63,042 nt of DNA, filler included, from Globobulimina sp. (GCA_003354225.1; 44 parts of 44 records of this genome joined end to end with filler, not necessarily neighbours in it); one strand, 5' to 3'. Positions 8,729 to 36,862 are shown, counted from the whole stretch's first letter. The notes: generated by a model from the letters alone, not told the origin. Numbers and translations are program-made.

Positions 8729-9952
8729 ATGAACGTCAACAAAACTCACAGGTTCACCAACATATGTTCGATAAGTCGCGGCTTTGGATTCAACATTTTC
8801 AGCATCGCGACCCGCCGCGACGAGTTAATCGTATTTGGCTTCATGCAGTCCATCCAATCCATATTGGCAGCGCATAGCATCTATATTCCAAACCGAATCT
8901 ATTTGAAAGTGCTTTTGTATTTTGGTCAAACCTACAACGAATATTACAGTGTAGGCAACAATGACTTCGGTGAATTGGGCATAGGACACAACAATTTCAT
9001 CGGGGACAAAGTCACAGCGATCCCGAGCTTTGGCAAAGCAGCAATATACGACATAGGTATTGCTTGTATATATTCATTTTATTTCATAATTTGATTAGTA
9101 TTACTTTTGCTGTGTAGGTATTATCCAAATCTGTACAGGTTCTGCGGCCCGCAATGTCTGTTGGATCACCAACAACGGCGAGCTGTACCTTCACGGCCAA
9201 AACTTGCAGAAATACCAAAATAAAAAAACTGATGAAGTCTACGCCGATGGTTACGAGCTCTCTGACGAACAAGCTTCGCTCCCTACGGAATGGCGCTATT
9301 TTCGCGAGAAAAAGCTAAGTTGCATAGCTGGAGCCAGCTCGTATTTCCATTGCATGATTGTGAGCAACGACGGCAGTGTGTGGTCGTTGGGGAAAGGCAA
9401 TTACGGAGAGTTGGGACATGGAGCAAACCAGCATTTGTTCACAGACAATTTTGTGAAGATCAAAGCATTGAACAAATATAGCATTACGGGGGTGTCCTGC
9501 GGCAGTTATTTTAGCTTATTTGTGTCTGACGGAGGCGATGTGTGGAGCTGCGGGAGCAACAAATATGGGCAATGTGGTCTGGGCTTCGCAGACGAGGACA
9601 AAAACAGATTGCCGCAGCGGATTGAATATTTTTTGGAGGAAGAGATTGAAGTCAAGCGGATTGAATGTGGCTTGTATCACTGTGTGGCTCTGGATGTGGA
9701 CGGCTATGTTTATAGCTGGGGGAGGAATAATATTGGACAATGCGGGAAGGCGGTGAAGGGGAACAGTGATAAAAGTGTATGTGTGCCGAGGTTGGTGCAT
9801 CATTTGATGGAATACCAAGTGAAGGATATTAAGAGTGGCTGTAACCACTCACTTGCGGTGACGGAGGATCGTGACTATTTTATGTGGGGATGCAATGACT
9901 TCAATGAGTGCTGTTTGGATCTGAGTGAGGAGAGTAATGGAGTGGTGGTTGC
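8729..9952 (+). CDS. RCC1-repeat protein with N-terminal box motif; intron 9057-9117 (3' partial)
   Basis: Repeated G.N.YG(E/Q)(L/C)G and V.CG..H/F motifs; splicing 9057-9117 joins the two ORFs in frame. Confidence 0.9.
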
Positions 9953-10052
9953 NNNNNNNNNNNNNNNNNNNNNNNNNNNNNNNNNNNNNNNNNNNNTTAA
10001 TTAATTAANNNNNNNNNNNNNNNNNNNNNNNNNNNNNNNNNNNNNNNNNNNN

Positions 10053-11320
10053 AGGAGATAGTAACCCATTATTGAAATAATGGGAGTGATGTATATTCAT
10101 GTTTTGTTGATGCTACAAAAGCATTTGACAGAATTTCTTTTTCTAAACTATTTGATTTATTAATAAAACGCAATATGCCTGCATCATTCTTAAGAGTGAT
10201 ATTTGATGGATACATCAGACAGGAAGTTTCCGTCCTCTGGAATGGAACCCAGTCTGATCCATTTTCTGTCACTAATGGGGTAAGACAAGGAGCTGTTATA
10301 TCAGCAGTATTATTCACGGTATATATGGATGAATTATTAGCGCGACTTCGACAAGATGGTGCTGGCTGTTATGTGTCAGAAACATATGCTGGGGCTTTAG
10401 CCTATGCAGATGATCTGACACTCCTAGCTCCTTCTTACAGTGGTTTACGTCGCATGATTAAAGTTATAGAACAATTCGGTAATGAGTATGCAATGAATTT
10501 TAATCCAAAGAAAACAAAATGCATGTTATTTTCAAAGAAACGCTATGTAACAACTGATATGTTGCCTATAATGGTTGCTGGAAAAACTGTTGGATGGGTG
10601 TCAGAGTTTAAACATCTGGGTATTACAGTGAAACCTGACCTCACAGATGGTACAGACATCGAAACAAAACGGATTCAATTTATTCAAAAGGCTAATTATG
10701 TACAACATGCATTCTCTGTGGCTTCCTCCCAGCTGCGATGTCGTTTGGTGCAGACCTTTTGCACTTCGATGCACGGGAGCCAGGCCTGGAGACTGGATAG
10801 AAATAATATGCAGCTTGACAGGGTAAGAACTGCCTGGAACTGTGTGCAGAGACGGGTCTGGAAACTTCCAGCCAGAGCTCACTGCAGGCTACTACCTGTA
10901 CTTGCCAACAACAATAATCTACTCAGTCAAATACAGAAAAGGACAGGCCGCTTTTTGACAAACTGGCAATCTTCAAATAATGTGCTGTTGAAAGTAATTT
11001 GGAATAATCGTTGCCAGAATGAAAACTCAGTTTTGAGAGCAAACGAGTTATTTCTGGCTCAACAAATTACTGAGACTACTGATTCAGAAATCATACAGAT
11101 AGCAGCCCAAATAAAGGAATTAAATTGTTGCCTTGATGACAAGCAGATGACATGTGGTCTGGATGCCAACCAGATTATGGATGTTTTACGATATATATCA
11201 ATGTCATAAATTTTAACATTTTATCTAACCATTATTTTTGCAATTTTTCTGTGATTAATTTTATTTTTTGTCAATCTTATTAACCTACTGTGCTTAACGG
11301 CGAATAAATAATACATATAT
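10053..11320 (+). mobile_element. Non-LTR retrotransposon reverse transcriptase (RTEX/CR1-like group) with 3' UTR; premature TGA at 10073
   Basis: FVDATKAFDR, GVRQGAVIS, YADD, FKHLG motifs; AATAAA then short TA run after the stop at 11209. Confidence 0.92.
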
Positions 11321-11490
11321 ATGGTATCAATTCATGTGTGAAATTATGTTATTATTGTTATATGTTACAACTGTTTTATAAAGTTATANNNNNNNNNNNN
11401 NNNNNNNNNNNNNNNNNNNNNNNNNNNNNNNNTTAATTAATTAANNNNNNNNNNNNNNNNNNNNNNNNNNNNNNNNNNNNNNNNNNNNAT

Positions 11491-11694
11491 AATGTAATAT
11501 TCATTGGTGATGATGTTACCGATGAAGATGGATTTGATGCATTGTTAAATTATGGCAAAAATAACTATAATGATAATATATCCGCCATATTAGTCACTCA
11601 CAATAAAATGAGGCAAACAAAAGCAACTTATTATGTCAATACTGTTAAAGAAGTGGAAGCATTATTAAACAAAATCGCTCAAACTTTGACTTAA
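11491..11694 (+). CDS. Trehalose-6-phosphate phosphatase (HAD IIB) C-terminus; not in the ORF track
   Basis: NVIFIGDDVTDEDGFDAL...TKATYYVNTVKEVEALL. Confidence 0.85.
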   Translation, partial: NVIFIGDDVTDEDGFDALLNYGKNNYNDNISAILVTHNKMRQTKATYYVNTVKEVEALLNKIAQTLT

Positions 11695-11820
11695 ATAAAG
11701 CAAAAACTTCCTTGAGTTTTAATAAATGCATTAAAAAAATGTTAGTTGAAAGTTCCTGTATCAAACTTAATAATTAATCAAATATTCACTCAAAACACAC
11801 ATTACATCATATTTGTTATT

Positions 11821-12824
11821 TTATCGAAGAACATCAAAATTAAGGGATATTTCTTTTGTTTTATGCTTACCATCGGCTTGAATCATATCAACAAATACAC
11901 GAATTGTAGTATCATTAAAAATAAATATAATTGGTATTGGTTCTTTATTTAATTTATAACTGTCCGATAATTCAACCTCTATTTTATTTGCTTGTCTCTT
12001 ATCATCAACAAACATTGGATCCGATTCATATGAATCATATAACCGTATACTTATTTTATTTGCTTTAATATCTGCTGCTTCCACCCAATAAATTACTGGC
12101 TTGTCATTGTTGCGAATTAATGTATTTTTCCGCACAAATGGTAGAAACACATCATTTATAACCTGTTTTGATATCATCTGTTTCTTATTATGTTTGGAAT
12201 AAACCAATCTTTTACTCACTTTAATTTTTGGTACCACTGAATGTGGATAAATTGATTTAAATTCAAATAAATCTTTTTGTATCGCAATACCATACGTTTT
12301 AGCAATGGTTCTGGCTGAAATAAAATCGGGTTTTAGACCCATCCGAGCTGCCCCATCGACTACGGATAGATTTATATGTATTTGATTGTGAATATTTGAG
12401 TGAATATTTGATTGTGGATTAACATACCTACGGATAGCACTGGTCGCATTGGTGTAAATATATGCAGATTATATCGCGATTTCCGACCAAAATTACTAAA
12501 CATTTTAGCCTGTAAATGTTTAGATTCACTAAAACCTCCAACCAAACATAAATATTTACAGCTATCCATTTCTGGCAATAACAATAATTTTTTACAATGG
12601 CAAACAATACAATCGACCACTTGATCAAATAAATAATTCCAAATTGTATAGCTTAATTCCAAATATTCTCCATTTAATGCCATTATTCCTGCAACAGAAC
12701 AAACAAACATACAAACAAAATAAATATATTGTATACTGCAATTCACTTACCTTTTTTTCCAAATTTAGTAAAATTTTTGACAATATTCCCCAACATATCA
12801 TCATCATCATCTTGCTCGGCAAGG
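11821..12824 (-). CDS. HSPA12: Heat shock 70 kDa protein 12-like (5' partial); introns 12360-12427 and 12689-12750
   Basis: YLCLVGGFSESKHLQ, spliced PVLSVVDGAARMG..SARTIAKTYGI. Confidence 0.85.
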
Positions 12825-12924
12825 NNNNNNNNNNNNNNNNNNNNNNNNNNNNNNNNNNNNNNNNNNNNTTAATTAATTAANNNNNNNNNNNNNNNNNNNN
12901 NNNNNNNNNNNNNNNNNNNNNNNN

Positions 12925-12962
<38 letters not shown>

Positions 12963-13240
12963 TCTATTTTTATTGCTCTTTTTTTTCGTTTGAGTTTATG
13001 AAAGACAACACACATTTTTTTGATTATAATGTGTTGATCGATCTGAAAGTATATTTATATGTATATTTTTTTTATCACATTTTGCCCTGTTTTTTTGTAC
13101 TAATTTAATTATTGCAAAATACCGTTTGTTTGTTATGGTGAATTCGTTTTGGCAGATTATCCTTACACAGTCCTTGCACATTCACAGTGGTCGAAATTTT
13201 CAACAAAAACATGCAAATTATCATCAACAGCTATTAAACA

Positions 13241-14014
13241 ATGACATTTCATGATTTCCCTCGTATCTCTTCAATGAATTTTGAAGAGGTATTATCAAAC
13301 AAACTGTATTTATTTGATCCAGAACAATTAAAAACTCTGCGTTTCCATCCAGAAGAATTGCAAAAACGTGATATATTAATTAGTGGCTATTTAAGAGAAG
13401 AAACGAATGATGAATTATATTTTCCAATGGTTGTAGTACATTTAATATTGATTCGTTTACCAAAATTTAAGCCAAGTGATGACGTCAAATTAGTCATTGC
13501 TGGATATATATCATCGGGGAAAACATCATTAATTCGACAAATTACAGATCATACAAATTCATATAGATTTAAATATAGCCAAAGGGCTACTTTCTGCGCA
13601 GATTTTTACACAAACAGATATTTTAATAAAATGATGGATAAAGAAATAAGATTAAATGTTCACGATTTAAGTGGTAATATCAAATATAAAAATGTAGTAA
13701 AGTGCTATTTTCGAGATGCAGATATTGCAGTTATTGTTTATGATATTACAAAACATGAATCGTTGGAATATGGATTGGCTTTAATTGACAAAAATGTTGA
13801 TAAACATTCAATAGTTGCTTTAGTTGGAAATAAATTGGATCTAGAATTTGATCGGAAAGTTGATAAAAAATATGCATTGCGTATGGCTGAAGAAAGAGGA
13901 TGTTATTATTTTGAAGTGACTGCTACAGAATATGATAAGGTTCAGACTGTGTTTCAACAGATTACTGATATGATGATGTACACATTTCCGAATGACTCTG
14001 TTTTTGTGAGATAA
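13241..14014 (+). CDS. Divergent Rab-like small GTPase with N-terminal box motif
   Basis: G1 GYISSGKTS, G3 DLSGN, VYDIT, G4 GNKLD, G5 EVTA. Confidence 0.9.
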   Translation: MTFHDFPRISSMNFEEVLSNKLYLFDPEQLKTLRFHPEELQKRDILISGYLREETNDELYFPMVVVHLILIRLPKFKPSDDVKLVIAGYISSGKTSLIRQITDHTNSYRFKYSQRATFCADFYTNRYFNKMMDKEIRLNVHDLSGNIKYKNVVKCYFRDADIAVIVYDITKHESLEYGLALIDKNVDKHSIVALVGNKLDLEFDRKVDKKYALRMAEERGCYYFEVTATEYDKVQTVFQQITDMMMYTFPNDSVFVR

Positions 14015-14071
14015 ATATTACTGCGCTTATTATGAATGCTATAAATATAAAACAGATACCGTTCCTATATA

Positions 14072-14156
14072 CAGAGGCTGGGCGTTCTAAATAGTTACAA
14101 AATAGTTACGCCTAACTATTTTGTAACTATTTTTGTAACTATTTAGTAACTATTTA
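14072..14156. repeat. TAGTTAC/GTAACTA repeat hairpin, possible DNA-transposon end
   Basis: Perfect 20-bp arms aaatagttacaaaatagtta / taactattttgtaactattt with a CGCC loop, plus extra GTAACTATTT copies. Confidence 0.6.
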
Positions 14157-14360
14157 ACAATGGTGCGAAACCATTATTACTCGTACATTTGTGTCATTGC
14201 CGACATTTACAAATCCTCTCAAAAGTCAACAACACTCCAAAAATCATCACCATACAACAANNNNNNNNNNNNNNNNNNNNNNNNNNNNNNNNNNNNNNNN
14301 NNNNTTAATTAATTAANNNNNNNNNNNNNNNNNNNNNNNNNNNNNNNNNNNNNNNNNNNN

Positions 14361-15643
14361 TGTTTCCATTATAAATATTTTAAACGTTTTTGCAAATCGT
14401 GTCAATCCGTCATATAATTTTTTATCCGTATACATCGCATATATTTTACCTAACTCTTGCTCAACATTTCGATGTTTAAATGCTATGCAAAGTATTGGTT
14501 TTAAGCTATTTTCCTGTGAATAATTATAAATAATTCCATATGTCAATGCATTGTGATATACAACATCACCATTTAGTTTATGTTGGATAAAATTAAATAT
14601 TCTATCAAATAAATCGGACAATGACACATTTTCAGCCGTATTAAATATTCTTTTTATTATATCACAAATATAATCCACAAACATTGATTTTGTGTCAGAG
14701 TTAGATATCATTTCATAGACATTTATCAATCGATTTATATCATTTAGCACCGATTTATCATCAAAAACTATCATTTTTACCAAAATATTTGAATTTAATT
14801 GAGATTCTTTCATTAATTTTTGGAATTTAATATTATTGCAATCAACCAATTCACTCAATATTGCATCAATTATATTCTTTAAATCATACTCGGTGCAAAA
14901 ATGCTTAATAAATGGAAATAATTCTTTCTTCTCCGCATTTAAATAATATTCGACTTTAATTAAATATTGATTGAACGAAAGCGAATTTGTTGACAATAAC
15001 TGATTACATTTGTGTTTATAATGCTTTTTGGCCGTTGAAATTAACATTTCTGTAAATTTATCATTCACTCCATACACATATTTATATTTATTGTAGAGAT
15101 TCCATAATTGTTGTTTGCTATTATTATTTTTGATATTATTCTTCTCAAATATATTATGCAATATATCTTTTATTTTAGTGGCTTTATTAAGTACTGATGG
15201 CATTAAAATGGAGGTGATTCTAAATATATTACTAAATTCTGTCCAAACAGAATGTATCCACTCCATATGAGATAAAAGCAGACGAATCTTTAGAAATAAT
15301 TGAATATATTATGCTTTTTTGTGTCATCATACATTGCGTTTATTGTAGCAATCCTCAAATCAATACCTTCATTGTAACTGTCTGTGGATGAAATTTGAAT
15401 CGCTCTCCAATGATTTGAGACGTAGCGTGCCCATAAAATTTCATTTTGTTGAGTTTCGATATCCGCAATATAACAATAATATAATTCATAATATTTTATT
15501 TTATTTTGATACCGCAGATTGAAAGAAAAATCCAATACAATTTTCCCATTTTCATTCCAAGTCACATTAGATATCACTGGTAGCGATTGCTTGCAATCAG
15601 AAGCATCGGCATCGCTTTTCGTAGTGTATAGATCAATATCCAT
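14361..15643 (-). CDS. Divergent cullin-like protein, apparent frameshift near 15300-15320 (3' partial)
   Basis: YLIKVEYYLNAEK..ELVD..FQKLM..DINRL helical cullin-repeat pattern; the two ORFs overlap in different frames next to an A6 run. Confidence 0.55.
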
Positions 15644-16029
15644 TAATTAAAAAACGAGTTTCTAGTACACAAAAACAGCCCAAAGAAGCAGTTTTTNNNN
15701 NNNNNNNNNNNNNNNNNNNNNNNNNNNNNNNNNNNNNNNNTTAATTAATTAANNNNNNNNNNNNNNNNNNNNNNNNNNNNNNNNNNNNNNNNNNNNATAT
15801 TTTTTTTTCCTAAATTTTTTTCAAAATTATGATGTTATATAAAATCACCATTCATCTTGTAATCGTGCCGCTTGCACCCTGGGCTCTTGCCTCTGTGACT
15901 ATCTTGCCTCTGGGTCTATCGCCCCGCAATGCAACTCTGTTGCCCCCTAATACATGTTGTACAATGAGTCCATACAGTGTTGATTTTAGAAGGTTTTATT
16001 TCTCCACTAAACCAATTTTCTACAATTAA

Positions 16030-17132
16030 CATTCAAATTATTCACAATATTCTGGCTATTTAGATTTAACAAATGAACGTCATTATCATTACTGGCTGAC
16101 ACAATCACAAAACGATCCTGATAATGACCCTGTAGTTGTATGGTTAACCGGTACCTTTACATAATTATATCCCATTACTATTTCCACTTTATTTGTATAT
16201 CTGCCAGGTGGTCCAGGTTGTTCTTCGATGCTTGGCTTATTATATGAACTTGGCCCATTACACGTGAATCCCAACGGGAGTTTATATGACAACTCTAAAT
16301 ATTCCTGGAACAACAATGCAAATATATTATTTTTAGAATCCCCGATTTGTGTTGGATTTTCTTATCAAACTGATCAAGATAATAATTTATTAAATTGTAC
16401 AATGAATGACACCACCACAGCACAAGATAATTACCAATCCATTGTTAAATTCTTAGAGAAATTCCCTATCTATGCAGCAAATGACTGGTATGTAACAGGC
16501 GAGTCTTACGGAGGAGTATATGTACCAATGTTGGCCAACAATATCTTACTCGGCGAAGCAAAGATAAATTTGAAAGGATTTGCTGTTGGAAATGGTGTAT
16601 CGTACAGGCCATTCATGCAAAATAGTCGATATTGGTATTATTATCATCATGGTATGATATCAGAGGCAGTGTGGAATGCAATGTTGACTAATTGTTGCAG
16701 CTCACCCTATGACAGAGAGTCTTGTCCATTTGTTCAATCTGTCAATCAGCAATGCACAGAGGCAGTAAACGAGGCGAATGTAATCTGTTGTTCCGGAGTG
16801 AATTTGTATAATATATATGGACCATGTTATCATTATAGCACTGAGGAGGAATTACGTATGTTTTCGTATCCAGCAAAAAGATATGAAACAGAAATGAAAA
16901 TGAATGGCTTTATGGGTATGGTAAAAGATAGTGATGCTTGTTTGGATAATCGTGGAAGTGAAATATATTTAAATCAAATGAAGGTAAGACGTGCTTTGCA
17001 TATTGCACCAATTTTAGATAATATTACATGGGATGTTTGTGTTGATAAAACAACCAATCCTTTGTTGAATTATACTGCTTATTATACGAAAGATATGAGG
17101 CCAATATATGATTCAATATTTGAAGCTGATGC
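16030..17132 (+). CDS. Serine carboxypeptidase S10 (cathepsin A-like); intron 16151-16207
   Basis: QYSGYL, WLTGGPGCSS (spliced), [20 protein letters not shown]. Confidence 0.95.
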
Positions 17133-17355
17133 NNNNNNNNNNNNNNNNNNNNNNNNNNNNNNNNNNNNNNNNNNNNTTAATTAATTAANNNNNNNNNNNN
17201 NNNNNNNNNNNNNNNNNNNNNNNNNNNNNNNNTCAAGAAAAATTTAATTTATTAAAATGACAAATATGCATTGTTTAATCATACTAACCTAATATTCCAC
17301 ATTGCACACATTTAAAAAACTGCGAAGTGAAACGAATTCTTTCTAGCTAAGCAAA

Positions 17356-18486
17356 ATGAGAAGGATTGTGCCAATCGCATATCGAAATTTCAGACATCCA
17401 CAAATTACCACATCAATGAAAAATTCTGTAGCGCAACAAATGGATGACACTATTTCAATTTATGACCATTCTGGAATTTATAAAGAATTTGAACAAAGAT
17501 TTTCTGAGGTTATGTGTTTGCAAACACCATACAACAAATATTGCGATTTACAAATGATGATTACATTGAAGTGATCGTTCCATCATACACCTTTTTTGCA
17601 ACAGTAACACCTTTATTACAATTACACAATATTTCGAATAAAATCAAGATTACATTTGCAGACTGCCAGATTTCAAATGGCAATATTTGTCCGAAATCCA
17701 TACTGACCCAAATCACAAATAAAACCAAAGCCATAATAATCACCCATATGTGGGGAATACCGTGTGATTTGGACCAAATTGTAGAAATCTGCGATGCGAA
17801 TAAAATCCTGCTATTCCAAGACTAAAAAGTTTGCAAGGCAAAAAACTAATAACTGCTGGAGAAGGCGGTATATTGTCCACAAAACACTGCGACATATTTG
17901 AGATCGAAGTGTCGATCTGTTAATCGGTCATTATAATAAACGTGCAATACAGCAAATCACCACAGAAGAAAATTTGCAATTTGCTGCAACTGGAACTGGC
18001 TTAAAATTGCGAATGAATCCTATGGGCACTGCATTAGCAAATGAACAATTAAAAAATCATTACTTTGAGAATCTGTTATGCGACAAACAGCAAATTGCGC
18101 ATTATATTTATGATAAAATTGGAGGTGATGCATTTAACGGATTATCGCCGGCTTTGATTCCTTTGAATGGTACTGCTGCTTTTTATGCTTTGCCGATATT
18201 ATTTGATGATGCTTATTTTCGGTGCAGTATGCATGAGTTTGTTAAATCGTTGAATGAGTTTGGAGTTTTAAGCGCAGACATACCAAATTCAACGTGTCCA
18301 TTGGATAAATACAGTATATTTCAACAATATGCTGAAGATGGTTCAAATCGACACCAATTCAAACAAGCACACATGTTTCATGCCTCTATGTTTAAGATTG
18401 ATGTGTGGTATGGACATGAAAAAGAACAATATGCTGACCATTTTTTAAATGCTTTGGAGGATGTTTGTAATTTGCATAAAAAATGA
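17356..18486 (+). pseudogene. DegT/DnrJ/EryC1/StrS PLP aminotransferase, disrupted
   Basis: EVIVPSYTFFAT, TKAIIITHMWGIPCD, SLQGKKLITAGEGG, GHYNKR; several frameshifts and missing conserved blocks. Confidence 0.85.
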
Positions 18487-18667
18487 ATCTGTTTTGTTCA
18501 TTTTTATATAAGTGTGTTAGATAAACTTCCCCCATTTGATTCGTCATCAAACATATTTTGAAGGGACNNNNNNNNNNNNNNNNNNNNNNNNNNNNNNNNN
18601 NNNNNNNNNNNTTAATTAATTAANNNNNNNNNNNNNNNNNNNNNNNNNNNNNNNNNNNNNNNNNNNN

Positions 18668-20002: not shown

Positions 20003-20295
20003 NNNNNNNNNNNNNNNNNNNNNNNNNNNNNNNNNNNNNNNNNNNNTTAATTAATTAANNNNNNNNNNNNNNNNNNNNNNNNNNNNNNNNNNNNNNNNNN
20101 NNCTTGCTAAATTACTGAATTAACATACATCTAAACACCGTGTGTTACAAACTCCTATGGAGATTTACATGCAGTGCAAGGATAAGTATACAGTTTCAAA
20201 AGAAAAGTGTTTCTATTCTAAAGTATACACAATGGGTTCATTATAAGTTAACAATAAAACAAAAAATAAAATAAATGGTTAGTCGTCATGCGCAT

Positions 20296-20928: not shown

Positions 20929-21213
20929 TCCATGCTGTTTCTTTTTTTTTCACGTAAAAAACATGGGCAACGACAACAACACACAACAAACAACATTCTA
21001 AACAATTTTCTAATCCAAATGAAATAGGATTTCTTTGTTGGCAGAAACACCATACTCATGTTCAAAAATTAAAGTTTGACGGACGAACTTTTCTTGGTTT
21101 AAAGATCGAAGTGGTGGGTCAAAATGCAATGGTGAACTGACAAATATTGTTGTTTTTTACTTTTTTACTAGAAGTTTTCGAACTCCTTATGCCGCCCGTC
21201 CATATATGAAACA

Positions 21214-21437
21214 ATGCAAGCACAACGCAAAATCATCATTGAAAGCTGGATGCGAAGGTCTTTAAATGGGGTTGAATATCCAGTGGAACTTATACCACTT
21301 ATGATTCAATACGGAGAACAACACGACGATATATTGGAGTTAGCAGAAAATAAAGATGTGCTAAAAATGTTGGCTAAAATGGGTGACAATTTCCCTATAA
21401 AAGAAAAGGTTGTACTCTCAAGAGATGTTATTAAAAT
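21214..21437 (+). CDS. Protein with N-terminal box motif followed by a myosin TH1/PH-like domain (3' partial)
   Basis: IIIESWMRR..YPVELIPLMIQY, then DILEL..LAKMGD..EKVVLSRDVIK. Confidence 0.55.
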
Positions 21438-21537
21438 NNNNNNNNNNNNNNNNNNNNNNNNNNNNNNNNNNNNNNNNNNNNTTAATTAATTAANNNNNNN
21501 NNNNNNNNNNNNNNNNNNNNNNNNNNNNNNNNNNNNN

Positions 21538-25742: not shown

Positions 25743-25845
25743 NNNNNNNNNNNNNNNNNNNNNNNNNNNNNNNNNNNNNNNNNNNNTTAATTAATTAANN
25801 NNNNNNNNNNNNNNNNNNNNNNNNNNNNNNNNNNNNNNNNNNCTA

Positions 25846-27177
25846 ATGCAATTCGAAAATAGAAAAACTGTTATGATCGAACAATCATTTGTGGATCCTT
25901 CTACAATAATACCAGTTGAAAAATCAATATCACCAGATTCACCGAGACCCCCGACACCGGGACAACCGACGTTATCACAATCAGGAAATCAATATCAATA
26001 CAATGAACAATATCGTCAGAATCTACAACGACACGGCGGTCAATGGAGTAATTTTCAATTTAAAATGCCATCACAACAAGATCAATTACCACCTAGACCG
26101 TCAAGATCGAGTTCACCCAAACATGAATATCCTCTTGAAGATAAAAGAACTTCAACAAGATCACAACCAAAATCGGCTTCCTCCAATTCAAGATCATCAT
26201 CTACTGACAAAAATACCGGAGTATATAAAACCATTATGCCAAGTATGGCTAATTATGGGAAACGAAATGTTGAAGATCGGTCAGACTCAAGTACTAGAGA
26301 CCCACACAGTGGTGAACCTAGACCCAAATCAAAACCGAAAACCATAACAAAATCGGGGACGGATACTATTCGAGATTCTAGAATAATATTAGAAATCGAT
26401 AAAATTCCTTTACGATATACCGTTGCCTGGGAAGATAAAAACCAATACAAAGCAAAAATATTAGAAAACGAAATCGATCGATGGTATGACAATAAATTAC
26501 ATGCATACTATGTAAAGCATGTATTTGAGGAAGTAAAAGGCAAAGAAAGTGATATGACAGTACTACCAATACCATTATCAATATTAAAACCGAGAACGAC
26601 TATATCGGAATTCGGAAATGACTTCGATACCCGATCTGCATACCGTATACCCGTAAAACAGAAATTCTCTGTAATCGGTGATTCAACAGTAATTGGACTT
26701 GAAAATTTTTTAACCCAAACCGCGAGAGAACAAAATGTACAGGATTTTCTAAACTATACCGGAACTAAAACGTCGGGAAACGCCCTTTCTGGACTCAGAA
26801 TAAGGGAAATGGGACCAGTTATACCAGCTTTTGTAACATATGATGAAACCGTCTTAATAATCAAAGGAGTTATGGATTGCGCCGATATCATTAAAGATCA
26901 TATGTCAAATTTCATTGATGAACCAGACCTCTGGAAATATCATTGTGATGAAGTTTTGAATGAATTACAAAAAACCGTTTTGAATATCAATACCGTATAC
27001 AAAAATGTACTAATACTAGTATCATTGACACAACCGATTCTACCGTATACCAGTTATTTATGTAATAGAAGTGACATCGGGCATATGCGGATGGTTCAAA
27101 CAATAGAAGACTATATGTATAAAAAAATCGATATTATGGCAAGACATTACAATGTCCCCATTAAATACATAATGTTA
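25846..27177 (+). CDS. Low-complexity protein with a C-terminal SGNH/GDSL-like domain (retroelement ORF1-like?)
   Basis: VIGDSTV, SGLRIRE, VLIIKGVMD blocks. Confidence 0.5.
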
Positions 27178-27277
27178 NNNNNNNNNNNNNNNNNNNNNNN
27201 NNNNNNNNNNNNNNNNNNNNNTTAATTAATTAANNNNNNNNNNNNNNNNNNNNNNNNNNNNNNNNNNNNNNNNNNNN

Positions 27278-28612
27278 TCTCATTCACAAATGCCGGAATA
27301 TTTCTTATCGACAGCCTGGTGAGCGATATATGGAAATTTGGGTCCTGTAATTTGATTTTCTTGGCTTTCCATTGTGTTATCCGTCGCTTTAACTCACTTT
27401 TTTCCATTCCATCCATCTCCGCCGCCGATAACATAATGCCTTCTTTCGCCAAATATAAATTCCTTTTGTCCTTGTTTTGGATGGATTTCTTCTCAATTTT
27501 CCGCGCTGCCTTTTTATTCACAGCAATATTCACAATTAATTTGCGTCCATTCAATAAGATATTCGTCTCATTATCCAATATATTGTCCACATCGTCGCAG
27601 TTATCATACTGAATGAAGGCAGACCCTTTTGCATTTCCAGTGATTTTATCATATACAATTTTAATGGAAATGATAGTGCCAAATTGTGCGAATTTATTAC
27701 GAATCGCTTCCTCGCCAATGTCATACGGCATATTCCGCACAAAAATAGTTCTCCCTTCATTGGCATCGCCAGAATAAAACCAAAAACGTTTGTTTCTCTC
27801 CGTTTCGGCCTCGGGCTTATTTTTCTTATTTTCCCTCTCTTTCCTCAGCCACTCACGAATTAATTTGCATCCTTCTTTCAAATCAGCTTCATTTTGCGCC
27901 ATAATCTTAAAATACGTTTTGGTTTTTTTCCTATTCGCAAATTGAAACAACAACGAACCAAACACACGAATCCTGCAATTGGTGCTTTTTTCAATCTGTT
28001 TTATATCCCTATTTTTCGCACAATTCTGGTCGTAAATCCTTGCAATATGCTTATATCCCATCTCCTTTTCTCGATTATCTCTGTTAAATCTATCCAAACA
28101 GTGCTTATTTTTAATAAAATGCACACCGCGCTGCAAAGTTTGATGCGTGGCGCCGGCGAATTCAATTTGCATTTTGAGCCCTTTGCCCTTGAAATGGAAG
28201 GAACAGCCGGTCTCAAATTCGAACTTTTTCCTCTTTTCAAAGCCATCGCCGTTAAAATACAATTTCCAATCAAAATCTTTGGGTTCAGCGTCAAATGGAA
28301 TGTTCATAATTTGCGTATAGCCCACTTCCCGAATCACTTTATTGTGCAAAATCTCGTTGACAATCTTGGTACATTTGCCTAGCGATATTTTACTATCACT
28401 CAGAATGTCGATATAATTGTTATTTACATTGACATTTATCTCCAGTTTGCAGTTGCATTCATATTGAATTATATTCAGACGGTGCCGCCATAGGAAATAT
28501 TTCAACCAATCATAGTCTAACGGCTCGCTGCTAATTGGAATATAGACCCTTTCCTCGATCTTTTCCGCTTTGTCGCGCTGTTTTTTTAACATATATTTGA
28601 CGAAAAACGAGC
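27278..28612 (-). CDS. NOP4: Nop4/RBM28-like nucleolar RRM protein preceded by three KH-like repeats
   Basis: GRTIFVRNMPYD, KGSAFIQY, DKRNLYLAKEG, KLQDPNFHISLTRLSIRNIP. Confidence 0.8.
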
Positions 28613-28858
28613 NNNNNNNNNNNNNNNNNNNNNNNNNNNNNNNNNNNNNNNNNNNNTTAATTAATTAANNNNNNNNNNNNNNNNNNNNNNNNNNNNNNNN
28701 NNNNNNNNNNNNATTTTATTACAAGTGTCACATCCACAGCTACAAACATTTCGCGTATTCATCTCAACTGCGATATTATTCAAATCCATATTTATTTTTG
28801 GACCAATATAAAATGCTAAAACAAAAGCCATAGGTGTCGATTGATATTGAGATTTTTG

Positions 28859-29050
28859 AACAATTCTCATGCTATCCATGACTGACAGACAAAGATACCG
28901 GACTGACAGACAAAGCTCATGCTATCCCGGACTGACAAACAAAGCTCATGCTATACCGTAATGACAGACAATTCTCATGCTATACCTGACTGACAGACAA
29001 AGCTCATGCTATCCCGGACTGACAGACAAAGCTCATGCTATACCGGAATG
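28859..29050. repeat. Minisatellite, 29-bp unit GACTGACAGACAAAGCTCATGCTATCCCG
   Basis: About six head-to-tail copies with no unique spacers. Confidence 0.9.
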
Positions 29051-29450
29051 AGACATTTTATTACAAGTGTCAAATGATTCAAATGACAGCGACAAGAATA
29101 ATGATAATGATAATAATAATTTGAACATGCAAAAATTATCAATATTTCACTTCACTTCACTTAAAAATACATGCTTTGTTGCTCTTGTTTAAAAAACTCA
29201 ATATTTGCTCTTACTATTACGCTCCTGTATTCCAGTCATTATACGCTCCCTCCTACGCTCCGTATTGTATCACCCTGTGGTACTCTCAAATTTTTGGCGA
29301 TAACTTATTTAATCTCCTTCTTTGGATTTCACTTTTTGTACAGTTGTGGTACATTCACCTACCAGGAATCCAAATTATTTGTGTGGTTATATTTAACATT
29401 AGTTGCCTGCTATATATCCATATTATTTATATTTTAAATTCTCTGTTTTA

Positions 29451-30047
29451 ATGTCTCAACAACCCCTCCAACAACCTCCTACGAAAGATATTTTTGACCC
29501 AGTCACTGGTAAGAATTTGAAGAGACCTTTCTGTGAAATTTGTGGTGCAGATTATGTCGGTGATATGCATTCTGCAGACAATTCTTGGACATGTGTGCAT
29601 TGCAATGAATTGTATGCATTTGAATATCGACCGCGTTCTCCGGCTTCCAATCAAAAACGGAAACATACACAAAAGAAGTCTCGGAAACATGTTGAACAAC
29701 ATAGTAACGTTGGAGCAACAATAAATACACAGTTTGAACAAAAACAGGCGCATAATCAACAACTTTCAAGTCCTCAACAACAGGAACCAAATCGTATTCG
29801 TTTCCAGAGGCAATTCCAACAAACACATGATATCATCCGTCAATATGGCAGACAGTGTATTAGCTTTATTGAGACAAATCGTCAACATGCGTACTACCAC
29901 TTTCCTTTGGAAAATGCGCTTGTTTCACATATTGATCCCGTATGCAAAGGTTTTGCGTTTGTTACTGGCTCCAAACGCTCGCCGAATCGTCGTTGGTATC
30001 AAAAAGTGATGTTAGAATATCCAGTGTTAAATAATGACTTTCTTGAA
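29451..30047 (+). CDS. Hypothetical zinc-ribbon protein (3' partial)
   Basis: CEIC..(16)..CVHC followed by basic and Gln-rich regions. Confidence 0.5.
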
Positions 30048-30689
30048 NNNNNNNNNNNNNNNNNNNNNNNNNNNNNNNNNNNNNNNNNNNNTTAATTAAT
30101 TAANNNNNNNNNNNNNNNNNNNNNNNNNNNNNNNNNNNNNNNNNNNNTCACCATCACCAAATTACAACAACAAATAAACGTAATGATTATTCATAAATAA
30201 TATAAGAAAACATCACAAAAAATATAGATTAAATAACCATCATTATGACACAAGAACAACAACGCAACATATTTTACATCATCTTATATTTAACACTCGA
30301 CAGTATTTCAATAATTCCATCTATAATCAGAGAATACATATGGCAAAAAATACATAAGATTAGTTTGTCAAACATTTTGTGATGAAATTCGAAGCTCTAG
30401 TCACAGCATTCTTTGCTTCTGGAAATACATTGACAAACATTGGATAGGTATGACATAAAAATGGAGAGCATATATATTATTTGGGTTCAAATCCCAACAT
30501 CACGTTGGGTCCTGTTTTGTTTGTTTTGTGTGTGAATTAGTGCAAGGATCTATAGAAACGGCAAACAAAAATATAAAAAAAGAGTAGATTGATTGGTCTG
30601 CGTTTGTAATTTGATAAACGTCGTTCAATGATATATTTTGATAATATAATCAACATATAATGATGAGACACAGACATAGTGACTATTTG

Positions 30690-30770
30690 CAAGGTGTTTG
30701 ATAAGATCAGTACTCAAAAAAAAAACCTTTTCAAACAGGAAAAAAAATCAGTACTTATCGGACACCCCTA
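30690..30770. mobile_element. Short MITE-like element whose right end matches the terminus at 40427-40457
   Basis: Reverse complement of 30740-30770 is 29/31 identical to 40427-40457; degenerate left arm ggtgtttgataag. Confidence 0.65.
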
Positions 30771-30948
30771 TTGATCGCATTTCTATTGATCGCATACTTT
30801 GTATCGCATCATTTCTATTGATCGCATACTTTGTATTGATCGCATACTTTTTATTGATGACATAATTTCTATTGATCGCATACTTTCTATTGATGACATA
30901 ATTTCTATTGATCGCATACTTTTTATTGATCGCATAATTTGTATTGAT
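30769..30948. repeat. Minisatellite, about 18-bp unit TATTGATCGCATACTTTC
   Basis: About ten tandem copies. Confidence 0.9.
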
Positions 30949-31934
30949 TATCTGTTGAGTTTGTTGCGTGTAATGTTTGACATGATCTTTTTGAGTAAGT
31001 CACTAGTTTTACATGACAAACTTTTAATTTCTTTCATTTCCCGTCTCTATACTATTTAGAATTGAATTATGATTAATCGCAAAAACAAAGGAAACCAACC
31101 ACATTGCTGGCAAAAGAGAAGAAATGGTAAAACGCAGTTGCCAAAGTGGCGCCAAGTAATGATTCGCGGGAAATTAGAATCAGAGAAGAAATGGATTGGT
31201 ATCGTAAAACATGTTATATCCATCCAAAGCATCCATATCATGGAAAATTGAAGCCAATGCATGTTAATAAACCAATTCCTGTATGGATGATTTTAGTCCC
31301 TTCGCATATTCAAGAAGCGACTCTTATTGGATATTGGCATTGTTTATCGAAGAAATTGACTCTATCGAAGATTAAAAATAATGCAAATTATGTGCCATTA
31401 TGGACGACGCAAATGTCAACAAATCGAAATGTGGATTTTAAAAAAATATTGTATACGCCGGCGACTATGAAGAGTTATATGTNNNNNNNNNNNNNNNNNN
31501 NNNNNNNNNNNNNNNNNNNNNNNNNNTTAATTAATTAANNNNNNNNNNNNNNNNNNNNNNNNNNNNNNNNNNNNNNNNNNNNACGATCACAGTATTATGG
31601 CGTTGTTTGTCGCGTTGTTTGTCGCGCGTTGTTTATCGTTGTTTGTCACTTTAATGTTTCAAAGTACATCAAAAATGTATTAATTAGATTTTTAATTAAA
31701 AAGTGAATCACGCAAAAATTATACAAAAACAAAACAAAACAAAAAGGGGATTCAAAAACAATTATTACTGTCAAATGCTCATTTTCAGAACAAACTGATT
31801 TATTTTTAGAACAAGAATGTCTGAACGAGCACTGACCAGTCAATTAAGGTCGGATACAAATTGCAAACACAAATACAAGGATTCAATTGTGGATTGTTTT
31901 TAATACCACAATAAAGTATTTGGTCCGGTTTAGA

Positions 31935-32450
31935 TTACTCTTTTCTTGCTTCTTCTAAACATTTATCAACGGCGGCATCTACTAATGCATCGATGGTTTG
32001 TTCTTTAAATTTGTCCTTTGCTTTGGCCACCATTACCGCGGGAAGTGCCGGTTCAACGCTGCCTAATTGTTCATCGATTTGTGGCTCAAATTGACCCCAA
32101 ATACTATCCTAAATATATTAATTAAAAAATGTAATGCATACAATTTAATATATATATAAATTGAAACAAACTTTAATTGCATCTTTCACAGCATTACCAC
32201 AGGCAGACACAATGGCGGCTTGCGTAATTTCATCTTGTGTGGATTTTTTATTTAATGTCATTGTGGTATCAGGTACCGGCCACTCATAGTCAGCAGAACT
32301 GGCAATCTCTCCTGGAAACTCTCTTTTGTTATTCTCTATACTTTCAGGAATACCTTTAACTGCGTCTGTAATTGCTTCACCAACTGCTTCCATATCAAGT
32401 TCAATTTCTGGGGCGGATGGCATTCCTGGGACAGATCCAATACAACCCAT
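31935..32450 (-). CDS. Complete 150-aa protein with MGC N-terminus (putative myristoylation/palmitoylation); intron 32109-32171
   Basis: In-frame GT-AG splice gives ...KDAIK|DSIWGQFEPQ...CLEEARKE*. Confidence 0.75.
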
Positions 32451-32560
32451 TATTTTTTATTGTGTTGTAGTTTGGGGATTTGGATTTGGATTTAGTTGTA
32501 AGGATGGATGGATGGATAAGTTAGTTTTGGGGAGCAAAGAGTTGAGTTTAGTAAGATTGA

Positions 32561-32693
32561 AAACAGCTTAAATAAATCTCTCTGTTCGCTGGCCACAGGA
32601 TTAATCCGATCACCAAGATAACGGTAATTACAGTTTTTTGCGTGGTCGGATTAATCCTGTCAACTCGAACAGAAATATTTATTTAAGCTGTTT
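32561..32693. repeat. Foldback palindrome (MITE-like)
   Basis: Arms aaacagcttaaataaat..tctgttcg..acaggattaatccga match their reverse complements. Confidence 0.85.
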
Positions 32694-32728
32694 ATAATAA
32701 CCAATTCAATCATTTATAATTAGTATAT

Positions 32729-32891
32729 TATTCATATGCAACTTTTTCGTTGTCGAGGCAGAGTAACGTTTCCGAAAACACAGTTTTTGGCAGAGGGTGC
32801 TCCGGGGGGTGGTGGGTGGGGAGCCCCCAAGGCCAAAAACTGTGTTTTCGGAACACGTTACTCAGCCAAGATATAAAGTTGCATATGAATA
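32729..32891. mobile_element. Foldback/MITE with TA ends and G-rich core
   Basis: tattcatatgcaacttt / aaagttgcatatgaata and ttccgaaaacacagtttttggc / gccaaaaactgtgttttcggaa. Confidence 0.8.
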
Positions 32892-33017
32892 CGATGCTTT
32901 ATTCCCAAAAATGACCANNNNNNNNNNNNNNNNNNNNNNNNNNNNNNNNNNNNNNNNNNNNTTAATTAATTAANNNNNNNNNNNNNNNNNNNNNNNNNNN
33001 NNNNNNNNNNNNNNNNN

Positions 33018-34352
33018 GTCATATCTTCTCCTGAGGAACAATTTGCCATTGGTATAAACATTCCCTTCTTTCGTCCAACTTGTACTACATCTTTTGGTAT
33101 TTGTTTCACATATGCATCTATCTTAGATGTGTACATTACTGGCAATTCTGGACTGGCACAACTTGATGCAAATTTGTCTCCAAATGTTGGTATATTTGTT
33201 GGTATTCCGGGTAACTGTTCTGTATCCCTTTTCACATCTTCAATCGGTCTCAAGTATCCTTCTGCATCTCTCCAGTGATCCGGATATAAATGCATATATT
33301 GCATCATCATCTCCACTCCTGATGGCATAAAAACTCCATTTGCTATCGCCCATCTGGTCAACGCATAGCTTTCAAAGATCACATCGGTGGTCATTGGATC
33401 ATCGATAATAATTAAGCAGTGACTGGCTCTTGTTTTTCCTACTAATCCACGGCCTTCATCTTTCAAAAAGCCGGTTAGTGCAATTGCCGTTCTTTCTCCA
33501 ATATCTTCGTGATCATATCCTGGGAAATGTTCCAAATGTGGATCAATTTCCTCTGTTGTTACCATATCATTCACCAATGCTGCTTTCATTTCTCCATGTG
33601 TTTTTCTCAATCCTTCCAATATTTTCGTTGGGGCACTACGGCCTCCGATCCAAATAACACATCGATATTCGTTTCCTTGTGCACTATCTGCATTTAGCAC
33701 CTGTACTTCATTTTCTGCTCCATACAAGATTCGCAACGCTTCTTTTGTATATAATCGATTGCCTTCATATGGTGTAATCATTGTTATATCATGGTGCGAA
33801 AATGCTTGTGCCTTCACTATCATTGTTACTATTGACAGTCCTTCATTGCACTGTGCTTTGTTCACCCGGCTATTGCCTCTCTTTTCTTCTGCTCCTCTTA
33901 CTCCAATTATCATCAATGGCACATTCAGTCGAGGTATAGGCAATCTATTCATACAAGCATTTCTTTGTTTCTGTGTCTCTTCATCCAGTCCACTCACCAT
34001 TGCTCCATCATAATGAATAGCTGACCATGGATAATTCATCACTTTTGTAAATCTGAAGGATTTCGACAGTGTGATCTGTACTACTGATGGTCGTGGCGCT
34101 GGTTCCACTTGTTCCATTTGTCCCAGTTGTTGGTCTTCCAGACTTTCATTTGACACTACTTTCATTAATTTTCTCAACATCTTCTCTGGATCTGTCAGTC
34201 TTTCCATTGCACTGGTACATCCCATTATCGCAATCTTTCCTTTACACATTGTAAATGGAGACAATTGTTTAGTGTCACCCAGCAGTACCATTCTTCTTGC
34301 ATATGTAGGATCCAACAACCTCACTGCACTAATTCCTTCCAACATGGTCGCA
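33018..34352 (-). CDS. Upf1/DNA2-like SF1 helicase C-terminal domain (partial at both ends)
   Basis: LLGDTKQLSP, LSKSFRF, ITPYEGNR, ADSAQGNEY, GFLKDEGRGLVGKTRA. Confidence 0.85.
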
Positions 34353-34521
34353 NNNNNNNNNNNNNNNNNNNNNNNNNNNNNNNNNNNNNNNNNNNNTTAA
34401 TTAATTAANNNNNNNNNNNNNNNNNNNNNNNNNNNNNNNNNNNNNNNNNNNNGAAAATTCTGGTAAAATCAAAAAAAAATGCAGCAAAGTCGCGCAATGT
34501 TGTTGTACTTTTATCAGGAAA

Positions 34522-35283
34522 GTGAGTGATTTATCTGGTGATGATGCGCCAGCGTCATATGTGAAAAATGTATATTTTAATTATGGTGATGGTGGTCGCA
34601 GGTTTTGTAGATATTGCCGAGAATATATTGGCGAAAGGAATGGAGATATCAGTGATTATTTCGATTTATTTATTACGTATCGATTGGATGAGGAGGATGT
34701 TAAGTTGATGAGGCGAATAATGCGCGGAAGTGGTGTCTGTCCAACGTGTTATCGGCCGTATAAAACATTTGATGATGGCACAACGGATCGATTGCAAAGA
34801 TGGGAGATACAAATTGAAGTTATCTCATATTATGTTTTTCGAATATTTGTGCATATTCCCATGATATTAATATTATTATTACCGGCGTTATTCGGAGGGT
34901 TAGCGTCTTGGATCACATCCATTGCCAAAGATTCACATAAAATTACATCGGATGCTGTCGATGACAAAGATATTCAAAATATAATCACAACAGACGAATG
35001 TTATAGGAATTTGGTACAAAATGTAATTCAAAATGAAATGCAACAAAATATGGATGTATTAAGTACACAAATTGAGTCATTAAATAAAAAATTTATTAGC
35101 ATATCAAATCAGCAAAAAAAATATAATTCTCAATTGACAAATATTACAAATCTGTTAACTTCAATTGATAATAAATTGGCGGATAATACGGAAAGTAAAC
35201 AAGAGAGCAAATCACAACAAAAGAGAAAAGAATTAGGTGGTATATTACAATCTGAATTTCATTCTGGAACAACAACTATTTGA
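34522..35283 (+). CDS. Hypothetical membrane protein with C-terminal coiled coil
   Basis: Two CxxC pairs, one TM segment, heptad-rich tail. Confidence 0.55.
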   Translation: MSDLSGDDAPASYVKNVYFNYGDGGRRFCRYCREYIGERNGDISDYFDLFITYRLDEEDVKLMRRIMRGSGVCPTCYRPYKTFDDGTTDRLQRWEIQIEVISYYVFRIFVHIPMILILLLPALFGGLASWITSIAKDSHKITSDAVDDKDIQNIITTDECYRNLVQNVIQNEMQQNMDVLSTQIESLNKKFISISNQQKKYNSQLTNITNLLTSIDNKLADNTESKQESKSQQKRKELGGILQSEFHSGTTTI

Positions 35284-35950
35284 AGAATAATTTTTTTTTT
35301 GTATATACATTTTTTCTGACTTTCTGACAAAACATTGCTGTGCTCATCGAATAGCTCCGTTTATATCGTAAACAAATCACCCACGTAATCACCTATACAC
35401 TTGTTAAAGGTCTAAAGTAAGTACAGTGATAAAAACGTTTTAATAAAAGTTAAAAAAAATGATTTAACAATACTTGGAATCTCGTAGATGTCTGATTGTG
35501 AGGTAGCACGAGCTATTAGTTAATTATTTTGCCATTTATATTTTCTTACCGTTTTTTATAGACTCTCCAGTATCACAATTCAAATCACCAGTTTATTGTA
35601 TTTATATTTAGATAATGGCAACCTTTTACATGTGTTACAATCCAATGTGCTGTGTTTTTTATCCATTATTCTTTTTTTTAATTCTCCCAATGAAATACAT
35701 GTCTTATTTGCTCTCATCAATTTTTTTTTTTGGTGGTTCCTCCTCATTATTTGCTGGCTGTGTTGCTCTGTTTCTTTTTCTTTGCTANNNNNNNNNNNNN
35801 NNNNNNNNNNNNNNNNNNNNNNNNNNNNNNNTTAATTAATTAANNNNNNNNNNNNNNNNNNNNNNNNNNNNNNNNNNNNNNNNNNNNTTAATGCGACACA
35901 CACACAATTGCAGATCGACATTTGCTCCCTTTGTGATTTATATGCGTTTT

Positions 35951-36862
35951 CTAATTTGTTGGGAGCTCATACCGATACATTGAGGATGCGCCACCCATTG
36001 CAAGTATTGCAAAATATTTTACATTTTTATCAATGGCAAGCACTTGAGACCAACATTCATTATGACAGTATTGCAAGCACCAATTATCGCAATCAATTCT
36101 CATTTTAATATAACTCCCAACATTCCAATGATCAATGCCTTCCAATTTTATTCTGCCACAATGTGTTCGAACACGGCCAGTATGTCTCCACCAAAAATAT
36201 CGATGACTACCAAACGCCTCATTATATAAATAAATATGTCCCAATTGTTGACTTTTTAAGATATTTAAATCAGTTTCGGAAATTATACCAATTTTATCAT
36301 TTGGATGGCATGCAATGCATTGAAATGTTAACTCGTGAATACCAAAATAAATCGGTATCTCCGAAATAAAAACAATATCTGTTGTGAAATCTGTAGTGTT
36401 TTTCCCTTGCAATAATTGGTACTGTTTGAATGGATTTGGCTGTTTAACCATACAAACTCCACAAAACCAATCAGTTAAAGGCATGGTTGCTAAACCTGAA
36501 CAAAATAAATCTGACGAATTTGAACATCCAGCACAAAATAGTAATACTTGAGAACCTCCACAAAGATAACAATTGCCATCAACATCTAACGGCTTTGTCT
36601 CGTTAATGTTTTGTTTATCACTTTGTTGCCGTTCATATATTGTTTTTAAAGTTGAATGCGTTTCATCATAAATAGTGAAATATGAATTTATTTCTAGTAT
36701 GTATGGAAAGCATATTTTGTTAATAGCTCGCGGTATTATTGAATATAAAATATATTGTACTCTGCGAATATAACCATCAATGACAATATTCAATGAACGT
36801 GCGTCTCTGAAACATGAGTTGGCATCTTCTATTCTGCGATAATTGCAAGTATAAAATGACAT
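35951..36862 (-). CDS. Box-motif + PHD-like finger + SPRY-like protein
   Basis: IVIDGYIR..IIPRAINKIC; CYLC..CAGC..DWFCGVC; GIHE..DKIGII..WNVGSYIKMRIDCDNWCL. Confidence 0.75.
   Translation of the reverse strand: MSFYTCNYRRIEDANSCFRDARSLNIVIDGYIRRVQYILYSIIPRAINKICFPYILEINSYFTIYDETHSTLKTIYERQQSDKQNINETKPLDVDGNCYLCGGSQVLLFCAGCSNSSDLFCSGLATMPLTDWFCGVCMVKQPNPFKQYQLLQGKNTTDFTTDIVFISEIPIYFGIHELTFQCIACHPNDKIGIISETDLNILKSQQLGHIYLYNEAFGSHRYFWWRHTGRVRTHCGRIKLEGIDHWNVGSYIKMRIDCDNWCLQYCHNECWSQVLAIDKNVKYFAILAMGGASSMYRYELPTN

Follow-up and report, generated by a model that had tools for sequence, protein, structure and literature searches.

A candidate lineage-specific two-helix module at the N-terminus of SPRY, RCC1 and Rab-like proteins of Foraminifera

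Introduction

Several described systems join a short helical box to interchangeable protein domains. The F-box is a unit of three helices and about 40-50 residues that starts L-P-x-E-I-x-x-x-I, the L-P helix being followed by helices 2 and 3 and a conserved Trp; in FBXO45 ('F-box/SPRY domain-containing protein 1') it is combined with SPRY and in FBXO24 with RCC1. In the SOCS box, a BC-box helix with the spacing h-x-x-x-C-x-x-x-h (h, hydrophobic) is followed by a Cul2/Cul5 box, and the whole lies C-terminal to the binding domain, as in the SPSB proteins (SPRY and SOCS box) and in Rab40 (Rab and SOCS box). The H-box of DCAF proteins is a short, poorly conserved helix-loop-helix motif, N-terminal to the propeller, that docks on DDB1. 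Also, the helix-loop-helix (HLH) dimerisation domains typically have a loop of very variable length. Here we describe an N-terminal module of about 38 residues that recalls these boxes in its layout and that is carried by three proteins encoded in a 63,042-base stretch of DNA from Globobulimina sp. (GCA_003354225.1), called the window below.

Foraminifera are major marine calcifiers with huge and poorly annotated genomes, and their lineage-specific protein modules are mostly uncharted. The window consists of 44 separate contigs of 1334-1336 bp each, ordered by length and joined by spacers of the form N44-TTAATTAATTAA-N44, and it is thus an artificial concatenation. Its gene content is eukaryotic, an example being a 61-nt GT-AG intron on contig 7. 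An earlier note, made from the DNA alone, had proposed that proteins on four independent contigs (7, 10, 15 and 26) share an N-terminal box of a ubiquitin-ligase adaptor system. The four peptide strings behind this proposal are indeed encoded where it placed them, at 8819-8923, 13370-13459, 21229-21312 and 36701-36790, each near the start of an open reading frame (ORF) of its own contig, the fourth being read only on the minus strand.

Resemblance between the segments

The evidence that carries the resemblance comes from proteins outside the window. The family of the contig-26 protein was searched with HMMER against 1.84 billion representative sequences, which gave 899 matches at E <= 0.001, and the best 150 of the 899 were used. 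Among these best 150 are many PHD-only proteins and a set of short SPRY proteins; 28 of the latter were retrieved, and their N-termini bear the same motif in a more typical form. One of them (P0033) has an N-terminus strikingly similar to the contig-7 segment, and two others (P0130 and P0158) bridge towards the contig-10 version. A profile, called here the outside profile, was made from 26 N-termini of external proteins, all found via their SPRY domain and with no window sequence included. Since SPRY was part of the search query, this outside sample is skewed towards that domain.

The six-frame translation of the window gave 1264 pieces, which were used for all the profile rankings reported here. 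With the outside profile, the first three places among these pieces are taken by contig 26 (31.1 bits, E 9e-9), contig 7 (11.3 bits, E 0.014) and contig 10 (8.7 bits, E 0.097), and the three matches coincide exactly with the flagged places; the best reversed decoy reached 7.1 bits. Moreover, comparison with hhalign gave P = 2.8e-6 over 54 columns (probability 88%) for contig 7 and P = 6.6e-6 over 38 columns (probability 85%) for the family alignment of contig 10. Among 224 control segments of 88 residues taken from the other ORFs of the window, the best P was 6e-4 and none lay at or below 1e-4. The result for contig 7 holds at P = 5.4e-6 when its nearest look-alike, P0033, is left out, and the contig-10 link has P = 3.1e-6 when the contig-26 family is left out.

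A subgroup of four SPRY proteins (P0130, P0141, P0151 and P0158) shows a variant of the motif, S/N-G-Y-I-[RK] followed by Y-P-x-E-L or by a form lacking the Pro. This subgroup bridges the typical and the Rab-like module, and its removal weakens the contig-10 link about 100-fold.

A comparison of the module profile with the 163 gathered proteins gave 27 SPRY-type proteins at 29.7 bits or more. Orthologues of the contig-10 protein follow at 17.7 (P0014), 17.4 (P0010), 11.1 and 9.7 bits, the orthologues P0012 and P0013 being absent from the matches among these 163 proteins, and the best unrelated PHD protein reached 2.4 bits. As judged from these profile comparisons, the segments on contigs 26, 7 and 10 are demonstrably homologous copies of a single module, some 38 residues long, and the shared box of the earlier note holds for these three. 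The size of the family is a lower bound, with at least 27 external copies in addition to the 3 in 44 contigs.

The contig-15 segment was rejected as a fourth copy, being at noise level in three profiles and in hhalign. It ranked 233 of 1264 with the outside profile (-0.1 bits, E 53) and 251 and 30 with two further profiles, and its hhalign value of P = 0.013 (probability 3%) was equalled by 10 of the 224 controls. Its ORF leaves the contig 41 residues past the motif and has no Pfam match, and a search for longer relatives found none. The 'TH1/PH-like' domain that had been placed after this segment has no counterpart there: the next ORF belongs to contig 16 and encodes a Tim17/Tim22/Tim23-family protein, which was probably mistaken for the continuation of the contig-15 protein.

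Compared directly with each other, the four segments are not significantly alike, and their similarity appears to be no more than chance would give. In a MAFFT alignment, the others share 8-21% identity with the first segment. With the contig-26 family profile and with a two-family profile from contigs 26 and 10, contigs 7 and 15 are at noise; the first of these profiles preferred a chance F-D-G-Y-I-R-Q in a reverse transcriptase over the other segments, and the second gave 3.0 bits (rank 23) for contig 7 and 1.4 bits (rank 65) for contig 15. In hhalign, the contig-26 and contig-10 families gave P = 0.0023, and contig 7 against the contig-10 family gave P = 0.22. Then, of the hidden Markov model that the earlier note had suggested building from the four segments, the versions made from the segments' own families do not recover the others, and the profile from outside sequences recovers three. 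A regular expression matching all four segments had 4 matches against 0 in 300 shuffles; this count is circular and post hoc and carries no weight.

A degenerate DNA pattern for the module was also run against metagenome contigs. It found 10 stretches, all judged to be chance: 6 are out of frame, 1 has an in-frame stop, and the 3 in-frame ones are unlike foraminiferal genes and reach 7.9-14 bits only from positions forced by the pattern.

Anatomy and lineage of the module

The module has the pattern h-h-x-G-[YF]-[ILV]-R, a variable loop, and then [IV]-P-x-[DE]-I-x-x-[LI]-C-x-x-[YF]. Over 32 aligned copies, the Gly is kept in 31, the aromatic residue after it in 32, the next, aliphatic, residue in 31 and the Arg in 25; the aliphatic pair before the Gly has V, T, I or M in its second place. 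After the loop, which spans about 2 to 47 residues, the Pro is present in 30 copies, an aliphatic residue at P+3 in 32, L or I at P+6 in 25, Cys at P+7 in 17 (Ile in 11) and Y or F at P+10 in 23.

The 27 strong external matches are all found in the first 90 residues of their proteins. In 25 the match starts within the first 40, which bears out the N-terminal position expected in the earlier note, and the remaining two start at residues 70 and 84. The next domain begins from a few residues to about a dozen after the module (in contigs 7 and 10, within about a dozen of the second helix). It is SPRY in most cases; PHD and SPRY, an RCC1 propeller and a Rab-like GTPase also occur.

Among 20 relatives looked up, the source names include Bolivina argentea in 6, Nonionella stella in 1 and an MMETSP transcript in 1. 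The first two names, both of foraminifera, are also those of the closest relatives of two of the flagged proteins, which bears out the earlier note's mention of Retaria. Judged by these names, the module demonstrably occurs in several foraminifera, where it has so far been found. No Pfam family captures it in the 21 module segments or in the 32 full-length proteins, which agrees with the expectation of a box missed by standard models. A description of the module was not found in the full-text literature searched, the Reticulomyxa genome paper being outside that search. The module is a real lineage-specific N-terminal unit and apparently new to description.

The proteins that carry the module

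The coordinates of the three genes and of the other features of the window are collected in Table 1.

Table 1. Features of the window, with positions counted from its first base
Feature	Position	Strand	Basis or remark
Contig-7 gene, partial	8729..9950	+	Pfam, open spliced frame; runs off the contig
Contig-7 exon 1	8729-9056	+	Start Met inferred
Module copy, contig-7 RCC1 protein	8813..8920	+	Outside profile rank 2; hhalign
Contig-7 intron	9057-9117	+	GT-AG, 61 nt
Contig-7 exon 2, RCC1 repeats	9118-9950	+
Contig-10 gene, 80-residue N-terminal extension with module, then GTPase	13241..14014	+	Pfam, homologues
Module copy, contig-10 Rab-like GTPase	13361..13465	+	Outside profile rank 3; hhalign
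Ras/Rab-type GTPase domain, contig 10	about 13487-13975	+	Pfam Ras E 3.8e-27
Contig-26 gene with module, PHD finger and SPRY domain	35951..36862	-	ORF; stop codon included
Module copy, contig-26 protein	36692..36793	-	Outside profile rank 1; residues about 24-57 of the 303-aa product
PHD finger, contig-26 gene	about 36452-36571	-	PDB profile E 2.6e-7; Pfam in homologues
SPRY domain, contig-26 gene	about 35966-36424	-	Pfam in family members; Foldseek
Contig-15 flagged segment, no demonstrable module copy	21229..21312	+	Profile rank, hhalign
Tim17/Tim22/Tim23-family protein, contig 16	21680-22126	+	E 1.1e-10
Retroelement remnant, RVT_1 reverse transcriptase, contig 8	10076-11206	+	Pfam
Retroelement remnant, DUF1759 (retrotransposon gag-like) ORF, contig 14	18670-20001	-	Pfam
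Retroelement remnant, 445-codon open frame with Y-V-D-D motif, contig 33	45933-47267	+	Motif read by eye
Long open frame, 434 codons	4341-5642	+	No Pfam match at E <= 0.001
Long open frame, 370 codons	5929-7038	-	No Pfam match at E <= 0.001
Long open frame, 445 codons	25843-27177	+	No Pfam match at E <= 0.001
High-G+C contig 3	2873-4208
High-G+C contig 7	8617-9952
High-G+C contig 17	22973-24307
High-G+C contig 18	24408-25742
High-G+C contig 42	58841-60174

The start Met of the contig-26 protein agrees with those of its homologues in the alignment. The G, Y, I, R, P, I and C of its module are invariant in five family proteins (41-64% identity), G-Y-I-R falling in the first predicted helix and P-x-x-I-x-x-I-C in the second. 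Pfam finds nothing in the window protein itself. SPRY is matched by Pfam in 20 of 32 family members (best E 3.5e-7), and a Foldseek search with the AlphaFold2 (AF2) model places at the top the SPRY domains of HERC1 (E 6.4e-8), TRIM9, TRIM67 and RanBPM, with E from 6e-8 to 1e-6. The C-terminal part of this family is a SPRY domain (PF00622) by both profile match and beta-sandwich fold. In the AF2 model, based on 32 sequences, the module forms helices at residues 21-39 and 45-58 with a predicted local distance difference test score (pLDDT) of 57-72. It runs straight into the first SPRY strand at residue 62 (pLDDT 91), and the SPRY domain as a whole has pLDDT > 90.

For the contig-7 protein, the spliced frame is open over 387 codons, and Pfam matches WD40_RLD (E 1.5e-49), RCC1 (E 1.4e-37) and RCC1_2 (E 3.7e-27). 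By these repeat profiles, the domain encoded in the second exon is RCC1-like.

The contig-10 copy is the most divergent version of the module, and its second half is very hydrophobic. Six homologues of this protein were found, and the whole 80-residue extension is conserved across the seven proteins. The best PDB matches are Rab6 and Rab5, the Rab6 match (E 7.7e-29) covering residues 80-242 only. The protein has the G1, DxxG and NKxD motifs, with D-L-S-G-N in place of the usual D-T-A-G-Q, a replacement that is kept in the homologues named after Bolivina and Nonionella. The domain is a Ras-fold GTPase closest to the Rabs. In Rab proteins, a C-terminal cysteine motif serves prenylation; no cysteine is present near the C-terminus of the window protein or of five full-length homologues. 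The usual prenylation is therefore impossible, and since this mark of Rab proteins is missing, we call the GTPase 'Rab-like'. In this case, one may speculate that the module could substitute for the missing lipid anchor in the localisation of the protein.

Thus, of the partner domains named in the earlier note, the RCC1 repeats, the Rab-like GTPase and the PHD finger with SPRY are recovered by Pfam, PDB profiles or Foldseek, and the TH1/PH-like domain is not.

Comparison with known adaptor boxes and dimerisation domains

The tie to F-box or SOCS/BC-box proteins proposed in the earlier note finds no support in Pfam or PDB profile comparisons. In Pfam, the only sign of an F-box family among the 32 full-length proteins is F-box_4 in one of them, with E 0.28. 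None of the F-box, SOCS_box, BTB, Skp1, HLH, LisH and RIIa families matches the 21 module segments at E <= 10, and the F-box, SOCS_box, BTB, Skp1 and HLH families have no match at the same threshold in the nine homologues scanned. Against the PDB at E <= 10, the module profile retrieved no F-box or SOCS-box chain and a single chance match, a histidine kinase; the PDB matches of the family profiles are limited to the PHD or GTPase parts. In the ESM atlas, the nearest named neighbours of residues 18-78 of the contig-26 protein are rotifer F-box clusters with a score of 0.82, a value also attained by a third of shuffled proteins; for the contig-10 copy there was no usable match. Profile models do not recognise the module as an F-box (PF00646 / PF12937 clan), and its membership in the F-box or SOCS-box families is not demonstrable.

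The module is like the F-box in being a short N-terminal helical unit before interchangeable protein-binding domains (SPRY and RCC1). Also, its second helix begins with a hydrophobic residue and Pro and continues with an amphipathic I/L pattern; this start, with the Pro in 30 and the aliphatic P+3 in all 32 of the aligned copies, is too short a pattern to be specific. However, the three-helix architecture with a conserved Trp does not appear: in the model of the contig-26 protein, two predicted helices are followed by the SPRY strand at residue 62, which would leave no room for helices 2 and 3. The G-[YF]-[ILV]-R helix, moreover, precedes the Pro helix, and F-box profiles miss the module.

On the other hand, the SPRY-type copies have an amphipathic helix with the h-x-x-x-C-x-x-x-h spacing of the BC box, and fusion to SPRY or Rab-type domains is common to both. 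Unlike the SOCS box, which like the F-box has three helices, the module has two, is N-terminal, and has no SOCS_box match and no Cul5 box, the SPRY strand following directly. Its Cys, present in 17 of the 32 copies, is lost from the RCC1 and Rab-like ones. In the contig-7 protein, a helix-loop-helix placed N-terminally and immediately before a beta-propeller resembles the H-box of DCAF proteins, a likeness of general layout and not of compared sequences. Finally, two amphipathic helices and a loop of very variable length are shared with HLH domains, from which the module differs in having no basic region, no Pfam HLH match, and downstream domains of cytoplasmic type.

Possible role of the module

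We consider it rather probable that the module is a lineage-specific docking unit for a putative common partner, comparable to the adaptor boxes (F-box, BC box and H-box). In such a unit, the module would fold as a helix-loop-helix hairpin, in which the small residues of helix A (Gly) and helix B (Cys), together with an Arg/acidic pair, would hold the hairpin together and the Pro would cap its helix. The double hydrophobic row predicted on each helix would be more than a two-helix hairpin can bury alone. The SPRY, RCC1 and GTPase folds are unrelated, so that they would offer no common intramolecular surface for the module, and with such wide hydrophobic faces the hairpin would then be expected to dock on a common external partner, or on itself. 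One constant handle would thus be followed by exchangeable binding or regulatory domains.

Several observations weigh against this docking unit. The AF2 model of the contig-26 helices is of moderate confidence only, and the contig-10 copy is modelled as a beta-hairpin instead of helices, at low confidence (pLDDT 41-50), in a model from seven sequences with a mean pLDDT of 42.7 that was judged unusable. The module lies directly against the first SPRY strand in the SPRY proteins, where it may have an intramolecular role. The contig-10 link drops to P = 5.6e-4, no better than the best control, once the four intermediate sequences are removed. Moreover, contig 7 is a single sequence whose N-terminus has no relative in the metagenome contigs searched, and its codon usage deviates, with a G+C fraction at third codon positions of 0.55 against 0.20-0.24 in contigs 10 and 26. 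This contig may stem from a genome region of different composition, or it may belong to another foraminifer-like organism present in the sample.

Among the alternatives, the module could bind Skp1, Elongin C or DDB1 as a degenerate F-box or BC box or as a handle like the H-box, and its carriers would be substrate receptors of cullin-RING ligases expanded in foraminifera; this we regard as doubtful. The second helix resembles the F-box start and the BC-box spacing, all the named ESM neighbours of the contig-26 segment are F-box clusters, and SPRY, RCC1 and Rab domains are known behind such boxes, as in FBXO45, SPSB, FBXO24 and Rab40. Nonetheless, beyond the F-box_4 match, no comparison with Pfam or PDB profiles gives an F-box, SOCS, BTB or Skp1 match; the predicted helices are two and not three, the next domain occupying the place of F-box helices 2-3 or of the Cul5 box; those boxes contain nothing that corresponds to the G-[YF]-[ILV]-R helix; contigs 10 and 7 have I or V in place of the Cys; and the ESM neighbours neither stand out from shuffled proteins nor extend to the contig-10 copy. 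A bolder proposal is that of a foraminifera-specific two-helix 'G-Y-I-R / I-P-x-D-I-x-x-I-C' handle for cullin-RING or other multi-subunit ubiquitin ligases, distinct from F-box, BC box, BTB and H-box and present in hundreds of proteins per genome, whose SPRY, RCC1 and Rab-like ends would be substrate-binding or regulatory. The three copies among 44 random contigs of 1.3 kb would be in line with so large a family. As a specific claim this is unlikely, and the ubiquitin-ligase reading is attractive yet unsupported.

It is decidedly improbable that the module is a helix-loop-helix for self-association, a four-helix bundle like those of HLH, LisH or RIIa that would dimerise the domain that follows. 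The amphipathic helices, the wide hydrophobic faces, a loop of very variable length, typical of HLH domains, and the moderate confidence of the monomer model would all suit such a bundle, whereas HLH, LisH and RIIa are missing from the Pfam matches of the module segments. Very improbable, finally, is a reading in which the module serves the SPRY family as an intramolecular cap or folding element, its copies before RCC1 and Rab-like domains being secondary acquisitions without shared function or false positives. A SPRY-type domain follows in each of the 27 strong external matches, the first SPRY strand, into which the module of the contig-26 model continues, is modelled with high confidence, and the contig-10 link depends in part on intermediates. 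However, those 27 were found via that very domain in a sample biased by its query, contig 7 keeps its P value without its nearest look-alike, and the contig-10 extension is invariant at many positions in seven proteins, from at least two other foraminifera. This conservation argues that the extension is under selection in a setting other than SPRY.

For the preferred docking unit, the presence of one unchanging N-terminal handle on SPRY, RCC1 and Rab-like domains suggests a hub shared by all, to which many binding domains would be brought. A ubiquitin ligase as hub would make the carriers a new class of receptors, found outside animals, plants and fungi; with another kind of hub, such as a scaffold of the cytoskeleton or of membranes, the module would be the sign of a large network of interactions that is still unexplored. 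In either case, the module profile permits the family to be counted and classified.

Other features of the window

ORFs that span the joints between contigs are artefacts, and these include several stop-to-stop frames of 476 codons. On the other contigs, Pfam finds RhoGAP, an importin-like protein, PPR, RRM, Tim17, a serine carboxypeptidase and reverse transcriptases. Five contigs stand out by a G+C content of 44-48%, the others lying at 27-40%; the genes of these five are eukaryotic, encoding a carboxyl transferase, RCC1, an importin-11-like protein and RhoGAP. This suggests either a strong compositional heterogeneity or a second eukaryote in the assembly. Finally, the three long open frames without a Pfam match (Table 1) may be lineage-specific genes.

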